Shown here: positions 20,033 through 27,395 of the stretch, one piece after another
Position numbering within the stretch: position 1 is the first letter of the stretch
Layout: every line of letters starts with the position of its first letter
Origin: a virus
Strand: one strand, 5' to 3'
Virus record (IMG/VR): IMGVR_UViG_3300029319_000002
Location: 1 to 64,000 of that record
Length of the DNA: 64,000 bases
Notes under the pieces: model-generated
What the model was told of the DNA's origin: nothing
What the model saw: the letters and a program-made list of their open reading frames with translations, nothing else
Database searches by the model: none
Translations under genes and position numbers: made by a program

Positions 20033-20761
20033 ATGAGTCAGTACATACCTTTTTTAAATTATAATGTTGCCGATATCCTGACTCTTTTTGGAGAACCCTC
20101 TTTATCTACTTTTTACATGGTATTTCTACCTGTGGGTGAAGTAGGTTCTAATTTAGCTAACGCATTCAAAGAAGCAGAATTATATAATACATCAAAAGAT
20201 GGATATAGACTTGAGGAAAAAATGTCCTTACTATGTTCTGATGCAACTCTTCCAGGATCTACATTTAACACTGTAGAAGTTAGAGGAAATCGTCAAGGAA
20301 TCACTGAGAGAGTTGCAAATTATAAAATATATCCACCAGTAGATTTTTCATTTATGGTAGACGCTGGACACTCAGTAATTCGTCTATTTGAAACTTGGAT
20401 GGGATTCATCTCTCCTTTAAATGGTGATCCAGATGATCCAACATCATATTATAAATTTAGATATCCTGATGAATATATTTTAGATTTTTATATCGTAAAA
20501 TTTGAGAAAAATGAAACCGCATTTGATCCAGGTGCTTCCAATTCACTAGAAATATTTCAGCAGTCTACAAAAACAGCTTATAAGTTTAAACGTGCATATC
20601 CTGCAAATATGGCATCCATTCCGTTGTCATATGATGGATCTTCACTAATCAAGTCTAGTATTACTTTTAACTATGATCGATATTATGCCTTCGATGTCGA
20701 AAAAGATATCACACCAACATTCATTAAAGAGTTTATTGATAACATCGTAAAGGGTGGATAA
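20033..20761 (+). CDS. Tail-tube fold protein (gp54/gp19-like)
   Basis: LLCSDATLPG, YKF.RAYP..MASIPLSY, ITFNY. Confidence 0.8.
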   Translation: MSQYIPFLNYNVADILTLFGEPSLSTFYMVFLPVGEVGSNLANAFKEAELYNTSKDGYRLEEKMSLLCSDATLPGSTFNTVEVRGNRQGITERVANYKIYPPVDFSFMVDAGHSVIRLFETWMGFISPLNGDPDDPTSYYKFRYPDEYILDFYIVKFEKNETAFDPGASNSLEIFQQSTKTAYKFKRAYPANMASIPLSYDGSSLIKSSITFNYDRYYAFDVEKDITPTFIKEFIDNIVKGG

Positions 20762-20793: not shown

Positions 20794-21522
20794 ATGCCTT
20801 TACCAAAAATTGCTACTCCCAAGTATGAATTGGAGTTACCTTCAACTGGAGAAACTATTGAATATAGACCATTTTTAGTCAAAGAAGAAAAAATTCTTGT
20901 GCTTGCTCTGGAAAGTGGTAGTCAGAATCAAATTACTAAAGCAGTAAAAGATGTTTTGAAGAATTGCATCTCTACGAAAGGGATCAAAATTGATAAACTT
21001 CCCACCTTTGATATCGAATATCTTTTCTTAAATGTTCGTGCAAAATCCATTGGAGAGAGTGTAGATGTAGAGGTCATCTGTCCTGATGATGGTCGAACTA
21101 CTGTGAAAAAGACTATCTATCTTGATGAAATTGAAGTTAAAAAGAGTGATGATCACAATCCAGTGATTGAAGTTGGAAATGGATATTTTGTAAAGATGAA
21201 ATATCCCTCACTAGATCAATTTATTGAAAATAACTTTGAAGTTGAAGACAATAAAACTGATGAAAATTTTAAGAAATCTTTGAGTTTGATTGCATCTTGT
21301 ATTGATTCTGTATACAATCAGGATGAAGCATGGGATCCCTCTGATTGTACAAAGAAAGAACTAACTGACTTTATCGAGTCACTGAATAGCACACAGTTTA
21401 AGAAAATTGAAAAGTTCTTTGAAACTGTTCCTAAGTTAGCACACACATTTAAGATTACAAATCCCGAAACTAAGGTTGAAAGTGAGGTAACAATTGAGGG
21501 ATTAGCAAGTTTTTTCGCATAA
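20794..21522 (+). CDS. gp26: Baseplate hub subunit/chaperone gp26
   Basis: MPLPKIATPKYELELPSTG..YRPFLVKEEKIL; ends GLASFFA. Confidence 0.93.
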   Translation: MPLPKIATPKYELELPSTGETIEYRPFLVKEEKILVLALESGSQNQITKAVKDVLKNCISTKGIKIDKLPTFDIEYLFLNVRAKSIGESVDVEVICPDDGRTTVKKTIYLDEIEVKKSDDHNPVIEVGNGYFVKMKYPSLDQFIENNFEVEDNKTDENFKKSLSLIASCIDSVYNQDEAWDPSDCTKKELTDFIESLNSTQFKKIEKFFETVPKLAHTFKITNPETKVESEVTIEGLASFFA

Positions 21523-21542
21523 CGATAGGTCATAATGACCTA
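21510..21542 (+). other. Candidate -1 programmed ribosomal frameshift signal
   Basis: In-frame T TTT TTC heptamer (21510-16), 9-nt spacer, hairpin TAGGTCA-TAA-TGACCTA (21526-42). Confidence 0.7.
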
Positions 21543-21707
21543 GTTAATTATTATAGAATAAATTTTGCTTTGGTGCAGTTCCATAAATATTCTTTGACAG
21601 AGCTTGAGGACATGATGCCTTGGGAAAGAGAAATTTATATTTCTATGCTTCAACAGCATCTTGAAGAAGAACGATTAAAGCATCAGCATAAACATGGTAT
21701 CACCTAA
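21510..21707 (+). CDS. gp51: gp51-like baseplate hub assembly protein in the -1 frame, lacking an upstream ATG (not in ORF track)
   Basis: ...HNDLVNYYRINFALVQFHKYSLTELEDMMPWEREIYISMLQQHLEEE matches the gp51 pattern. Confidence 0.85.
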   Translation, partial: FFRITIGHNDLVNYYRINFALVQFHKYSLTELEDMMPWEREIYISMLQQHLEEERLKHQHKHGIT

Positions 21708-24700
21708 AATTGGACCCAGTTTTTTCGGAAAGAATTACGAAAGATACGTCAGTGAACTAACCACTGAGGGTACAATTGCTGGTGAGAAGTTAACACCAGA
21801 AGAAAGAAAAGAAGGGTTTAAAAAGAAAGGTGATAAAATTAATTTCAAGAATTTCTTAGAAAAAGTTCTTGAAAGGTTACCTCCTGATGCTCAGAAAAAA
21901 ATAACTGAAGGTGAGATTAATCGTGTCAATTTTGACAGATATGGAAAGAAGATATCTGTTGATGATTTAAGGCAAGACTCATCTGTAAATATAGGATCAG
22001 AAAATAGAAACACTGGTTTAGAAACTAGTGGATTAGTTGCCCCAAGATCTCTGCTTATAAATCCAGAACAATTACTTGATCTTGATGAAGTAGTATTAGA
22101 TCCAGAAAAAGTATCTACTGCTATAGTAAAATCAACAGATCCAGAAAAAGTATCTACTGCTATAGTAAAATCAACAGATTCTGATAAACTATCATCAGAA
22201 TTAGTAAAAACTATTGACTATGAAAAGATAGTAAATGAATTAGTAAAGACTAATACGATATCAAATGTAATAGAGTCTAAATCTATAGAACTCTATAAAG
22301 ATAAAAATGGAGAATATAGATCTATAGTAGATCCAGAAATAAAGGAAGTTGTTGTAGAATCCTTAGATGAAAATATTCCAGATGAACTAGATGACTTAAT
22401 AAAAAGTGTTCGTGAAGAAAGAATCAAACCTAAAAAAGATGATAAAATATTTGCAAACATAAAGGAGACCAATAAAAATCTTTTAGAAACAAATAAAGCA
22501 CTTTATGGACTTATCAAATCTCTAGAAAAAGAGATGGTTGAAGATAGAAAGAAAGCATTTAAAGAAAAGGATAGACTTAGAAAGGAACAAAGGAAAGCAA
22601 CACTTGCATCCTCTGGAGTTGTTCGTTCAGGTAGTTCATCCACAATGAGAAGACCTAGAGTCAGTGGCACTGGATTATTTGATAATCCATTATTCAAATT
22701 CTTAGGATTATCAGCACTTGCAGGATTAGTAGAATTTATTCCTAGAATTATTGAATTTGTTGAAACTTTACCAGAAAGAATAAACAAATTCTTTACTGAA
22801 GATATTCCTGAGTTTATAGGAAAGAAGTTTGAAGAATTTAAGAGTTTTGTTGGTGGATTCTTCACAGATAGATTCAACGAAGTCAAACAATTTTTTGAAG
22901 ATATTTACACTGGAATTGACGAATTTACTGGTGGTAGACTCACTGAATTTATAGAGGGAATCAAAGGTCTTGGACCCATGATTGTTGAGAAATCGCAAGA
23001 GTTCTATAAGACAATTGATGACTGGACAGGTGGTAGAATATCTGGTGCTTTTGATTGGATTGGGAAGAATGTAATTGATCCATTAGGTGCGTTCTTCAAA
23101 GAAAAGATAGATTATGTTGGAACAAAGGCAGGAGAACTCTGGTCAAACTTTAGTAGCAGTTTCCTCAATTTCTTTGGTGATATTAAGTTTGAACTTCCAG
23201 AGTTTCCTGACTTAGGTGTAACTGAAGTAATATCTAATACTCTTGGACTAGAACCTGCAGTAGAAGGACCAGATCTAACACAAGATTTAGTTGCTGTTGG
23301 TGGCACAACTGCAGCAAATATTGCTCCTATGTCTGGTGCAACAGGAATGGCAGTAGAAGGAATGGATGCATCACAAGTTGCAAACCAGATTCCGAACATG
23401 AATGTTGGTGGAAAATCAGTCCAGTTAGGAACAGGATTATCCCAGGGTGGAACTGGAGAAGATGTTCAAAAACAAATCAGTGGACTGAAAGAAGGTGGTG
23501 CAAAAGGTGTTCAGGTATTAGGAACTGGTGATGCTGAGAAAGATGCGACATTACAAGAAATCGTTGCTCAGAATAAAGACTTTGCTACATTCTTACCAGC
23601 AGTAAAATCTGACACTGGTGGAATTGATTATAATGCCACTGCAGCTGCAGGCACTCAACAAATTCAAGATAATATTGCGATGCGTACAAGTGGACCTGGA
23701 GATCCAAATTCTGCACAATCTAAAACTGCTAGAGAAGTAGTTGCTTCGATGGGATTTACTCAACCAGATTTTGATACTTTTAAAGGTGTAGTAGCACAAA
23801 TAGAGTCTGGTGGTAAGTATGATATTAAAGGTGGTTCTGGTGATCATTATGATGGAAGATATCAGTTAGGTGCAGAAGCAAAAACAGATGCTGCAAGATA
23901 TCTTGGTGTTCCTGACCCTGGACATACTCCAGAGTCTAGACAAAGATTTAGAGAAGATTCTGAGATGCAGGAGAGATTCTTTGCTGCATTTACAAAAGCA
24001 AATCATACTTACTTGATGGGTAATCCTGAATATCGTGATGCAAGTCCAAGAAGAAAATTACAGATTCTTGGTTATGCACATAATCAAGGTATGGGTGGTG
24101 CTGAGAAATGGATGACCACAGGTGAAGTTGGTGCTGATGGGTTTGGAACAAAAGGAACAAAGTACACTGATGAAATCAGAAAAGCATTTGCAAGTACAGC
24201 ACCTCAGCAGAGACAACCTCAGAGATCTGCACAACCAGTTTCTGCAGCACTTACTGGAACTCTTGATAAGATTGATTCTGGTCAAATGGCACATACCACA
24301 TCTGGAACTAGAAAACCATCTGTAGTATCAACATCAGCAGTTATTCCAAATCGAGATTCTATCTCAGTTACTTCTAGAAGAGGAATGAGAGATCATCCAG
24401 TTGCTGGTGGACAAAAAATGCACCAGGGAACTGATATATCTGCACCATCTGGAACCCCACTATATGCTTTCACTGATGGTGTAATTACTGATCGTGGACA
24501 TGATAATGGATATGGAAATTACATGGCATGGAAAGATTCTTTTGGATCTGAGCATTTCTATGCACACATGACACAAATGTCCGCTAATATAGGTGATAGT
24601 GTGAAAGCAGGAACTATTATCGGAAAATCTGGTGGTGGTGCTAATGACCCTGGAAGAGGCACGTCCACTGGACCACACTTACATTGGGAATATGGTCCTG

Positions 24701-25080
24701 TCGGAGAAACAGGTAGGAATGGTGCTGGACTGGTAGATCCTTTAGATAAGTTTGATTACATGATGCCTTTTGGTGCAAAGAAAATTATTGGGTCACCAGA
24801 ACCAACCCCAACACCTGCTCCTAAACCAACATCAATTACTGCAGTACCTTCACAAACACAAGCAGCAGCAGACGCCGTTTCTAGAACTCCCTCCAGAGCA
24901 TCTAGATCCAGAGTTAGTAATATAAATCTACCTGCAGAAGTGAGAAATAATCCTGTTATCGCAGGATCTACTGGTGGACAAAGTTCATCAACTGAAAACT
25001 ATGTCCCTAGAGTTTCTACTAGGACTAGTAGTGACATTTATCAAATTAACACTAGATCTCTCTTTAATATCGTAGGATAA
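21694..25080 (+). CDS. Tape-measure/hub-like protein with lysozyme-like and M23 peptidase domains
   Basis: Helical Trp/Phe-periodic middle; QIESGGKY...GRYQLG lysozyme-like segment; HQGTD...YAHM...GPHLHWE M23 motifs. Confidence 0.8.
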   Translation: MVSPKIGPSFFGKNYERYVSELTTEGTIAGEKLTPEERKEGFKKKGDKINFKNFLEKVLERLPPDAQKKITEGEINRVNFDRYGKKISVDDLRQDSSVNIGSENRNTGLETSGLVAPRSLLINPEQLLDLDEVVLDPEKVSTAIVKSTDPEKVSTAIVKSTDSDKLSSELVKTIDYEKIVNELVKTNTISNVIESKSIELYKDKNGEYRSIVDPEIKEVVVESLDENIPDELDDLIKSVREERIKPKKDDKIFANIKETNKNLLETNKALYGLIKSLEKEMVEDRKKAFKEKDRLRKEQRKATLASSGVVRSGSSSTMRRPRVSGTGLFDNPLFKFLGLSALAGLVEFIPRIIEFVETLPERINKFFTEDIPEFIGKKFEEFKSFVGGFFTDRFNEVKQFFEDIYTGIDEFTGGRLTEFIEGIKGLGPMIVEKSQEFYKTIDDWTGGRISGAFDWIGKNVIDPLGAFFKEKIDYVGTKAGELWSNFSSSFLNFFGDIKFELPEFPDLGVTEVISNTLGLEPAVEGPDLTQDLVAVGGTTAANIAPMSGATGMAVEGMDASQVANQIPNMNVGGKSVQLGTGLSQGGTGEDVQKQISGLKEGGAKGVQVLGTGDAEKDATLQEIVAQNKDFATFLPAVKSDTGGIDYNATAAAGTQQIQDNIAMRTSGPGDPNSAQSKTAREVVASMGFTQPDFDTFKGVVAQIESGGKYDIKGGSGDHYDGRYQLGAEAKTDAARYLGVPDPGHTPESRQRFREDSEMQERFFAAFTKANHTYLMGNPEYRDASPRRKLQILGYAHNQGMGGAEKWMTTGEVGADGFGTKGTKYTDEIRKAFASTAPQQRQPQRSAQPVSAALTGTLDKIDSGQMAHTTSGTRKPSVVSTSAVIPNRDSISVTSRRGMRDHPVAGGQKMHQGTDISAPSGTPLYAFTDGVITDRGHDNGYGNYMAWKDSFGSEHFYAHMTQMSANIGDSVKAGTIIGKSGGGANDPGRGTSTGPHLHWEYGPVGETGRNGAGLVDPLDKFDYMMPFGAKKIIGSPEPTPTPAPKPTSITAVPSQTQAAADAVSRTPSRASRSRVSNINLPAEVRNNPVIAGSTGGQSSSTENYVPRVSTRTSSDIYQINTRSLFNIVG
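22099..22179 (+). repeat. 39-bp exact tandem duplication (DPEKVSTAIVKST x2) with degenerate copies following
   Basis: gatccagaaaaagtatctactgctatagtaaaatcaaca occurs twice. Confidence 0.95.
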
Positions 25081-27395
25081 TGTCATTAGGATCAATTAAA
25101 AGAAAAATAAACGCAAAGACATTATTAGGTCAATCCTCAGTTTTACGAGAGAACAGTGAGGTATTAAAAAAAGGTGTCAAAAAGTTAGCAGTAATATTAA
25201 CTGAAAGAAAGAAGATTAGTCCATCAACATTGATGGCAACAAAAAAACCCGAAGTTGTAGAACAGAAAAGAATTGGTCCAGGTGAATATGATAAACCTGA
25301 GGGTGGTGGATTTCCCCTTGGTCCTTTGTTGGCAGGACTCGGTGCATTAGGTGCTGCAGTAGGACTTGCCGCACTGGATCCAAAAATGTTTTTAAGGAGA
25401 TTTGCAAGAGCATCTCTTAAAGCACTTAAAAATCTTATCGAGAGGTTACTAAAAACATTTAAAGGTGTTATAGAATCTATAGGGAAAGTATTTAAAAAAA
25501 TATTTAATGCAATTGCAGAGAATGTAAAGAAACTAAAGAATCTCATAGACGATAAACTTCTAAAACCATTACGAGAAGCATTTGAGAATGCTATTAATAG
25601 TAAGTGGTTTGCGAAGTTGCGAGGATTTTTTGATGATATTGCAGAATCTGTAAAAACTTTTATTAAGAATTCAGCAGAGAGATTTAAAACATTTGCTGAT
25701 GATATTTTCAAAAGAGTAAAAACTTTTACTGATGATGTTATTGAAGGTGCAATAATAGCATTCAAAAAAATTCTTGATGATATTGCTGACAAGATATTAA
25801 AACCACTCAAATCTGTAGTGCTTGAATTTGTTGAACGCACTAAGAACTTTTTGAAGGATGGTGTAAAAAATATTGGACAAACAATTGCCGAAAGAGCAGG
25901 TAAAGAAAGTTTTGGTGAAGTAATCGAAGTTGTAAGTGATACATTATTAAAGAATTTTGATAATACTGTAGATGGTATTATTGGTTTTGTAAAAAAACCT
26001 GTTGATGCTCTACAAGGATCTCTTAAAGCATTAGGTGATGCTGGAATTGGTATAGTTAAAGTTAGAAGTCTTCCAGGTTTTGAAATAGTAGAAAATACTG
26101 TTGCTAATATATCAAAATCTCTTGACGGTATAGGTAGAAATGTAAAGTCTGCTGTAAGAGATATCCCTAAACAAGTTGGTGAATTAGTTACTGATATAAA
26201 AGCAGGAAATACTCCTGTCCAAAAAGCATTTGGATTTGTTGCACAACAATTCGATCCCGAAGTAATGGTATCGAGATTCGGTAAAGGATTAGATTTTATT
26301 AAGGGAGTAGGATCTCAAATTGGTGGTGCAGTATCTACTATGAAGGAGGGATTATCTCAATTAAACATTGTAGAGCAAGCATCAAAATTTAAAAATGATA
26401 TGGTTGCTAATGTGGGTGGATTCATTGGTGATTTAAAAACTTCCGTAACTAATAATATTCAAAATACCATTTCTGGTGTATTTGGAAAGAGTAATACTCA
26501 ACAACAAATTCTAGGTCAAGCAGAATCTGCTATTCAGCAAATATCTAAAGATGCAAAACCCGGATTAAAGGCAGTTAAGGGTGCTAGTGATCAAGCCACT
26601 AAAGTATTTGATTTATTTGGTCCACTAAAGAGTGGGTGGAGAGAAGCAACAGGTAAGTTTGAGCAACTTTTTGCACTTGCTGAATTTGCAGTTTCATATG
26701 GGTCTGCAATTGATGCTCAAAAGAGAGAAGCAGAAGGAGGACCCCCTGCAAAATTTATGGGAAGTGATATAAAAGGACAGACGATGGGTGATGCTATTCT
26801 AAGTGTATTGGGTGCGTTTGGTGGTTCTGCTATCGGATCTGCATTAGGAACTCAAATTGGTGCTACCATTGGTGCTGCTGTTGGAGCACCGGTTTTTGGT
26901 GTTGGTGCTGCGGTCGGTGCAGGTGTTGGTGGATCATTATTTGGATTTTTAGGATCTGTTCTTGGTGGTATAATTGGTGAAGATATTGGTAAACTAACTT
27001 CTTCAGCAATTGCAGATAGAGTTACTATTCCCGATCCATTCTTAGAAGATAGAAATCTATTTTCTAAAGAAGGTAGAAGTGATTTAACAGTTTTAGGTAT
27101 GTTTGGATTGGGAGAACCTGCTCCTACTGAAGAACAACCTCAAGGTGGATTTGGTAATCTTGCACCTAAACCAGTGAAGATGACCCGTGATTTCCAATCC
27201 ATGGAAGATTACACCGAATACATTACAGATACTGAGGTTGTGATTATTACCAAAGAAAATGTGGTAAATAATGTTGTACAAACACCTATGGTTCAGCAAA
27301 GTAAAGGTGGCATGATTCCTATACCTATTGGTTCTGGTGAATCAGTGTTAGATAATTTTAGATCCAGAGCACTTTCTCAATTAGCATATACCTAA
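25080..27395 (+). CDS. Tape-measure-like protein
   Basis: Long amphipathic helices (about 11-aa periodicity) and a Gly/Ala-rich hydrophobic segment. Confidence 0.7.
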   Translation: MSLGSIKRKINAKTLLGQSSVLRENSEVLKKGVKKLAVILTERKKISPSTLMATKKPEVVEQKRIGPGEYDKPEGGGFPLGPLLAGLGALGAAVGLAALDPKMFLRRFARASLKALKNLIERLLKTFKGVIESIGKVFKKIFNAIAENVKKLKNLIDDKLLKPLREAFENAINSKWFAKLRGFFDDIAESVKTFIKNSAERFKTFADDIFKRVKTFTDDVIEGAIIAFKKILDDIADKILKPLKSVVLEFVERTKNFLKDGVKNIGQTIAERAGKESFGEVIEVVSDTLLKNFDNTVDGIIGFVKKPVDALQGSLKALGDAGIGIVKVRSLPGFEIVENTVANISKSLDGIGRNVKSAVRDIPKQVGELVTDIKAGNTPVQKAFGFVAQQFDPEVMVSRFGKGLDFIKGVGSQIGGAVSTMKEGLSQLNIVEQASKFKNDMVANVGGFIGDLKTSVTNNIQNTISGVFGKSNTQQQILGQAESAIQQISKDAKPGLKAVKGASDQATKVFDLFGPLKSGWREATGKFEQLFALAEFAVSYGSAIDAQKREAEGGPPAKFMGSDIKGQTMGDAILSVLGAFGGSAIGSALGTQIGATIGAAVGAPVFGVGAAVGAGVGGSLFGFLGSVLGGIIGEDIGKLTSSAIADRVTIPDPFLEDRNLFSKEGRSDLTVLGMFGLGEPAPTEEQPQGGFGNLAPKPVKMTRDFQSMEDYTEYITDTEVVIITKENVVNNVVQTPMVQQSKGGMIPIPIGSGESVLDNFRSRALSQLAYT

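Follow-up and report, generated by a model that had tools for sequence, protein, structure and literature searches.

The DNA analysed here, referred to as the window, is a stretch of 64,000 nt (positions 1 to 64,000 of IMG/VR record IMGVR_UViG_3300029319_000002) from an uncultured T4-like marine phage. Among named relatives, marine single-cell viral contigs and Synechococcus phage S-CAM9 are the closest (66-70% DNA identity). The locus considered here is made up of the following features:

20033..20761, + strand: tail-tube-fold gene (tube initiator type, gp54/gp48-like); PF23849 Phage_TTP_2, E 3.3e-13; phrog_45 'tail tube', E 4e-26
20794..21522, + strand: gp26, the predicted short chaperone form (TAC-N), 242 aa, 0 frame; PF12322; phrog_150
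21496..21500, + strand: Shine-Dalgarno-like GAGGG, 9 nt 5' of the heptamer; putative dnaX-type stimulator
21510..21516, + strand: slippery heptamer T_TTT_TTC, in-register X_XXY_YYZ
21516..21707, + strand: -1 extension, gp51-type C-terminal domain, 63 aa plus stop; phrog_634, E 1.7e-27
21520..21522, + strand: 0-frame stop TAA of gp26, from the ORF reading
21526..21542, + strand: hairpin, 7 bp, loop TAA, 9-nt spacer; from the pairing arms and RNAfold
21694..25080, + strand: 1128-aa lysozyme-like and M23 peptidase protein; PF01551, E 2e-21; phrog_5867, E 7e-56
25080..27395, + strand: 771-aa tape-measure-like protein; phrog_1272, phrog_4200 and phrog_167, E 5e-17 to 8e-11

The gene order runs from the tube-like gene through gp26/gp51 and the lysozyme/M23 gene to the tape-measure-like gene, which is the second gene after gp26/gp51 and does not adjoin it. 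In phages Mosig and phiM9 the gene syntenic to 20033..20761 is annotated 'baseplate tail tube initiator'. The three profiles matched by the 771-aa protein are each named 'tail length tape measure protein', and the 1128-aa protein has weak matches to tape-measure phrogs as well. Beyond the 3' end of the 771-aa gene lie a tail protein, a gp5-like hub/lysozyme protein and very large fibre proteins. The region around gp26 constitutes the hub/tube module of a T4-like phage.

The 1128-aa protein has a lysozyme-like region at residues 680-835 (phrog_5867), an M23 peptidase at residues 908-1000 and, near residue 150, a short tandem peptide repeat, DPEKVSTAIVKST, in two copies; its syntenic counterpart in S-RSM4 bears the annotation '2OG-Fe(II) oxygenase family like protein'. 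The ATG of this gene overlaps the final codons and the stop of the -1 ORF (21694-21707, ATGGTATCACCTAA), which suggests that its translation is coupled to ribosomes arriving at this point.

The gp26 ORF ends AGT (21508-10) TTT TTC GCA TAA (21520-22), so that a T_TTT_TTC heptamer stands in register at 21510-21516. It is followed by a 9-nt spacer (21517-25) and by the arms of a 7-bp hairpin, TAGGTCA (21526-32) and TGACCTA (21536-42), around the loop TAA. The -1 frame is free of stops from 21498 to a TAA at 21705-07 and encodes, from the heptamer onward, the peptide FFRITIGHNDLVNYYRINFALVQFHKYSL..., in which the start candidates are a TTG at codon 20 (21570) and then the first ATG at codon 34 (MMPWER), in mid-domain. 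A slip of one base at the heptamer is predicted to join 241 residues of gp26 to 63 residues of the -1 frame, giving 304 aa as against the 242 aa of the short form. An earlier note on this DNA had described the in-register heptamer, the spacer and hairpin, an open -1 frame from 21498 to 21707 that encodes a gp51-like domain, its late first ATG and a gp26-gp51 fusion of about 300 aa; each of these was found as described, the last as a prediction.

The two parts of the predicted fusion belong to known families. gp26 matches PF12322 (T4_baseplate) with 246 bits, the Pfam gathering cut-off being 24.5 (E 3.8e-73), and phrog_150 'baseplate hub' over profile positions 5-232 (E 6e-79). The -1 peptide matches phrog_634 (gp51, 'baseplate hub assembly catalyst'; E 1.7e-27) and also aligns to positions 227-281 of phrog_150. 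Because this second match follows directly on the part of the profile taken up by gp26, some members of the phrog_150 family already combine the gp26 and gp51 parts in a single chain. A search of the local copy of Pfam with the -1 peptide returned no match, as did NCBIfam searches with gp26, the -1 peptide and T4 gp51; precomputed annotations on fused gp26-gp51 forms assign a newer family, PF28602. The AlphaFold2 model of the -1 extension (pLDDT 79) has three helices, of which helix 1 (residues 2-24) starts at the Phe-Phe pair.

One way to account for this arrangement is that gp51 is an independent small protein of about 45-65 aa, either initiated on its own or produced by termination-reinitiation past the gp26 stop; in that case the conserved T run would mirror just the Phe-Phe end of gp26. 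This would agree with the inspected phage annotations, in which a separate small 'baseplate hub assembly catalyst' gene is listed, and with the many junctions that have an ATG 2-5 nt past the gp26 stop. Marine cyanophages often have no strong Shine-Dalgarno sequence, so a missing site is weak evidence. Helix 1, however, spans residues 2-24, and in the model a start at TTG codon 20 or ATG codon 34 of the window would remove all or most of it; for the same reason annotated gp51 starts would delete part or all of this conserved helix.

Related loci were compared in a set of 231, made up of eight annotated phage regions (S-CAM9, S-RSM4, Pelagibacter phage Mosig, Caulobacter phage Cr30, Vibrio phage F86, Sinorhizobium phage phiM9, Aeromonas phage Aes012 and T4) and of IMG/VR loci gathered with gp26 queries from the window, Mosig, phiM9 and Cr30. 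A scan of IMG/VR with gp26 of Vibrio phage F86 as query found no relatives. gp26 and the gp51 domain adjoin on one strand in 226 loci; three loci are truncated, and T4 and Aes012 were handled apart. The gp51 domain is encoded in the -1 frame in 226/226 adjacent loci, and all 226 (208 unique junctions) have T_TTT_TTN in register, with C in the last position in 161, T in 61 and G in 4. The lineages represented are cyanophage-type, pelagiphage Mosig-type, phiM9-type, Cr30-type and KVP40-like vibriophage. Judged from sequence comparison, a combination of in-register heptamer and -1 gp51 that recurs in 226/226 loci is far beyond chance. The earlier note had proposed conservation of the T run at gp26 ends, with gp51 in the -1 frame, as a check on its reading, and variable frame offsets as evidence against it. 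A run of TTTTTT followed by C, T or G is present in 226/226 loci and the -1 offset is universal; it is the starts in the gp51 frame that are variable and often absent.

The nucleotides of the junction are conserved in a way that points beyond the protein. The T run is not merely tied to the stop codon, since across homologues the heptamer is followed by the 0-frame stop at a distance of 3 to 81 nt. The codon before the run is AGT, GAT, TCT, AAT or GCT, which encode Ser, Asp, Asn or Ala, and its wobble position is always T; in the rest of the gp26 genes T occupies 79% of two-fold and 41% of four-fold wobble positions. There, Phe is encoded by TTT in 74% of cases, and Phe-Phe by TTC TTT in 51% and by TTT TTC in 6%. 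As the wobble T is invariant across four amino acids and TTT TTC is rare elsewhere, the constraint at the predicted slip site is on nucleotides and not on protein; it cannot stem from the protein sequence, as the reading of gp51 as an independent product would have it. In all loci, Phe-Phe outside the slip site is mostly TTC TTT, an order that interrupts T runs, which suggests that accidental slippery sites may be avoided in gp26.

Entropy computed per codon position carries the frame-0 wobble signature as far as the heptamer; beginning with the codon right after it, the signature is that of frame -1. From Phe-Phe onward, the 190 unique -1 peptides form a gap-free alignment with conserved His7 (94%), Leu10 (93%), Tyr13, Asn17 (97%) and Phe18 (98%). 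They have no conserved Met before position 37, and position 5 is Leu in 58% and Met in 39%. An ATG falls within 8 codons of the heptamer in about 56% of junctions, and partial independent initiation may occur in phages with such an early ATG. No ATG precedes codon 20 in 44% of unique junctions, and 32% have no ATG, GTG or TTG there. A start position that is unconserved and often missing, an offset of -1 in 226/226 loci and the T4 gp51 chain, in which the domain is fused to a gp26-like body, all speak against an independent gp51, which we regard as very improbable.

The region 3' of the heptamer tends to fold. In the window the hairpin has a folding energy of -8.9 kcal/mol (z -0.8 against dinucleotide shuffles, which is weak taken alone), and RNAfold adds an outer 4-bp helix starting at 21520. 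Among 37 offsets compared in 194 unique homologues, the 45 nt 3' of the heptamer have the lowest folding energy, with a mean of -8.27 kcal/mol and a mean z of -1.7 against mononucleotide shuffles; the next best offset has -6.99, and the others range from -1.4 to -7.0, typically about -4.7. A helix of at least 6 bp lies 3' of the heptamer in 99 of 129 diverse sequences, in pairing registers that differ by clade: 31 sequences have one, 29 another, and the window and two others a third. RNAalifold applied to 129 diverse junctions gave no consensus structure, and compensatory changes in the downstream hairpins are few. These folding data provide moderate evidence that selection would act for 'a hairpin here' rather than for one structure. 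On the 5' side, GGAGGG or TGAGGG is common but not universal in the cyanophage-type clade and absent from the other clades; in the window, GAGGG at 21496-21500 doubles as codons for a conserved Glu-Gly.

The same 304-aa fusion would arise if RNA polymerase were to add one U on the T run in some transcripts, as a single inserted U gives exactly the -1 frame. The site is indeed a homopolymer, with at least seven T in 61/226 loci and eight in some. Efficient slippage by bacterial RNA polymerase, on the other hand, usually takes runs of about 8-9, for which six T are short. Transcription would not require the X_XXY_YYZ register in which the run is always found, and the folding minimum lies 5-9 nt 3' of it, as expected of a ribosomal stimulator. 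Transcriptional slippage as the source of the fusion is, in our view, quite unlikely; at a low level it could also be compatible with the six-T run, and the protein would be identical.

T4 and Aes012 possess genes 26 and 51 as separate, divergently transcribed genes without recoding. Their gp51 proteins (249 aa) consist of a T4_baseplate domain (E 3.9e-52 and 2e-45) and the gp51 C-terminal domain (phrog_634). T4 gp51 spans positions 13-280 of phrog_150, and a tblastn search with the -1 peptide of the window finds the last ~55 residues of Aes012 gp51. Given this architecture, the gp51 domain is naturally a C-terminal extension of a gp26-like body. T4 gp51 is then the in-frame counterpart of the predicted 304-aa fusion, and T4 gp26 represents the short form. 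An in-frame form of 300 aa, with the junction GFFRIALSH, was found on one Tara contig and may have arisen as a natural fusion or through a sequencing error in the homopolymer. Separately, a 117-aa fragment on an ENA contig is an in-frame variant without the T run (junction ...LEGLASFSGSDGHETLESYF...), which could reflect a long-form-only lineage or an assembly error.

The frameshift arrangement is seen in Kyanoviridae, Pootjesviridae, Cr30, pelagiphages and the large marine vibriophage F86 (228 kb), which we presume to be KVP40-like. This spread would, by parsimony, make the frameshift state ancestral and the two-gene state derived. In a quick tree, gp26 of T4 and Aes012 groups with the gp51 N-domains of the same phages (SH-aLRT 90); all branches concerned are long and the tree is therefore only a hint that a lineage-specific duplication may lie behind their gp26 and gp51. 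T4, which textbooks treat as the exception to the frameshift in tail chaperones, would on this account be a derived case in which recoding was replaced by gene duplication. The gp51 of cyanophages and marine vibriophages had been reported, without explanation, to be devoid of the first ~200 aa (Sullivan et al. 2010, PMC3037559). These 'missing' residues would be accounted for, since the frameshift would supply them.

The AlphaFold2 model of gp26 (pLDDT 88, pTM 0.81) was aligned by VIA-align to 48,161 PDB representatives. The best three matches all fall on residues 1-95 and are 3fgx (Z 8.0), 2ob9 (Z 7.4) and 3klu YqbN (Z 7.4), although by the tool's own warning values of 7-8 may indicate a common arrangement only (Z below 8-9). 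They cover 85-86 residues at an rmsd of ~4 A, and the next unrelated chain has Z 4.2. Entry 2ob9 is described as 'bacteriophage HK97 tail assembly chaperone', and 3fgx and 3klu are chaperone-type structures too. A Foldseek search of the model against the PDB gave nothing at E <= 0.001 (2ob9 ranked 4, E 0.55), PDB sequences searched with a gp26 profile gave no match, and Pfam Phage_TAC_3 matched weakly in 2/88 homologues (E 0.003). The model comparison suggests that the N-terminal domain of gp26 may have a tail-assembly-chaperone-like fold. The analogy with lambda G/GT, which the earlier note had drawn for gp26 and the fusion, is supported by gene position and by this predicted fold.

It is also conceivable that the long form is made, and that the pair are baseplate-hub assembly factors functionally unrelated to lambda G/GT and with different clients. 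T4 genetics names gp26 and gp51 hub assembly chaperone/catalyst, and both, as is known for T4 only, are needed to assemble the hub/tail and do not occur in the virion (PMC3004832). The gene directly 3' is the lysozyme/M23 gene and not a tape-measure-like one, and the gp26 body (242 aa) exceeds the size of gpG-type proteins, with only its first ~90 residues matching chaperones. Yet the hub of T4 includes its tape measure, gp29, the best structural matches are tail assembly chaperones, and the literature, as reflected in citing papers, already calls gp26/gp51 tail assembly chaperones. A role as hub factors unrelated to G/GT thus seems rather unlikely to us.

We propose, and consider likely, that a lambda G/GT-like -1 ribosomal frameshift produces a 242-aa short and a 304-aa long chaperone from this locus. 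The gp26 gene would be a tail (hub/tube) assembly chaperone gene that is decoded in two ways. The majority of ribosomes would terminate at the TAA at 21520-22 and release the 242-aa short form. A minority would slip back one base with tRNA-Phe on UUU and UUC of U_UUU_UUC (21510-16) and continue in the -1 frame to 21707, yielding the 304-aa form with its three-helix gp51-type C-terminal domain. Slippage would probably be helped by the hairpin 9 nt 3' and perhaps by GAGGG 9 nt 5'. The proposal builds on the observed signal and its conservation, the switch of coding constraint between frames, the homology with T4 gp51 and the predicted chaperone-like fold; from these we infer that slippage would be ribosomal, and its efficiency that of a minority event. 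The short and long forms would correspond to T4 gp26 and gp51 and to lambda gpG and gpGT. By analogy, the common part would serve to bind the tape-measure protein and the extension to bring in tube or hub subunits, which makes these the candidate binding partners of the two forms.

In lambda, gpG and gpGT are produced by a -1 frameshift in the chaperone genes (Levin 1993; Xu, Hendrix, Duda 2004; reviewed in PMC5009743). On the proposed reading, the window resembles this system in (i) a -1 slip close to the chaperone gene's 3' end, with tube and tape-measure genes nearby; (ii) a long form that consists of the short form plus a C-terminal domain; (iii) a similar predicted fold (HK97 2ob9, Z 7.4, a value that may reflect a common arrangement only). 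It differs in the heptamer (G_GGA_AAG in lambda, U_UUU_UUC in the window) and in having a common body ~100 aa longer, an extension of only 63 aa and no sequence similarity. The E / E+E' frameshift of phage P2 occurs on the heptamer TTTTTTG. As in the window, the P2 system (Christie et al. 2002, J Bacteriol 184:6522, cited in PMC12859696) combines a contractile tail with a -1 shift on a T-run heptamer and a chaperone gene 5' of the tape measure, although its proteins are far smaller and of an unrelated sequence family. The succession of GAGGG 9 nt 5', heptamer and hairpin 9 nt 3' may have the same layout as E. coli dnaX. Unlike in dnaX, the 5' element of the window is unconserved beyond the cyanophage-type clade and also codes for Glu-Gly, and its role as a stimulator is putative.

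A full-text literature search on gp26/gp51 frameshifting gave no direct report. The study of Vladimirov, Gautam and Davidson on the tail assembly chaperones of T4-like phages (Virology 2022;566:9-15, doi 10.1016/j.virol.2021.11.003) surfaced via a citing paper. It is cited in the PRFect preprint (PMC10274946) for some T4-like phages that have a short gene plus a longer fused gene with no frameshifting, and in a 2025 paper (PMC12846349) as a source on poly-T signals for -1 slippage in 'TAC-N genes of T4-like phages'. The T4-like chaperones of that study have in common with those described here the protein family (PF12322), the gp51 C-terminal domain and short and long forms with one N-terminal body; for the 'TAC-N' gene of T4-like phages, a poly-T slip site is reported too. 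T4 and Aes012 differ from the window in having two divergently transcribed genes without recoding in place of one gene plus a -1 shift. The principle of a chaperone frameshift in T4-like phages appears, from the citing papers, to have been described in 2022 already, and the view of the earlier note that it was undescribed for this group is not upheld. With the principle published, the value of the present work lies in confirmation and annotation, not in discovery.

A review by Atkins et al. (2016) holds the G-T frameshift to be conserved in long-tailed phages 'except T4' (PMC5009743). We think it unlikely, going by the citations of the 2022 paper, that it comprises only the identification of T4 gp26/gp51 and a sequence-level suggestion of poly-T sites, which would leave the family-wide picture as new. 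Were this so, the new part would be the invariant in-register U_UUU_UUN, the coding-constraint frame switch and the clade-specific downstream hairpins, spanning Kyanoviridae, pelagiphage, rhizobiophage and KVP40-like lineages. The 'except T4' gap would be closed, with separate genes as the derived state in T-even and Aeromonas phages.

The frameshift has consequences for annotation. In 6/8 inspected GenBank/RefSeq records gp51 is a separate small CDS with differing starts and without a join or ribosomal_slippage feature; the remaining two (T4, Aes012) have gp51 as a full-length separate gene. Among the matches listed, several further public records leave gp51 unannotated. The proposed frameshift would imply a systematic annotation error, in which hundreds of public T4-like genomes list a free-standing 'baseplate hub assembly catalyst' of 45-65 aa with arbitrary starts. 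gp51 would be better annotated as a 'join' frameshift product of about 300 aa.

Two further observations concern the sequence downstream. A second in-register T_TTT_TTC lies at 21720-26 (AGT TTT TTC GGA, 'PSFFG'), nine codons into the 1128-aa gene, and is present in the window, in its closest relative (locus L005) and in few others. As a slip site it is probably incidental, being found in only 8/204 homologues and followed in the -1 frame by a stop after 10 codons. Further 3', at 33025-58053, three giant ORFs in a row (3215, 2923 and 2151 aa) carry repeated domains of unknown function (phrog_5070/7964) in five to six copies and match tail-fibre phrogs, namely phrog_529 (1337 bits) and phrog_5342.
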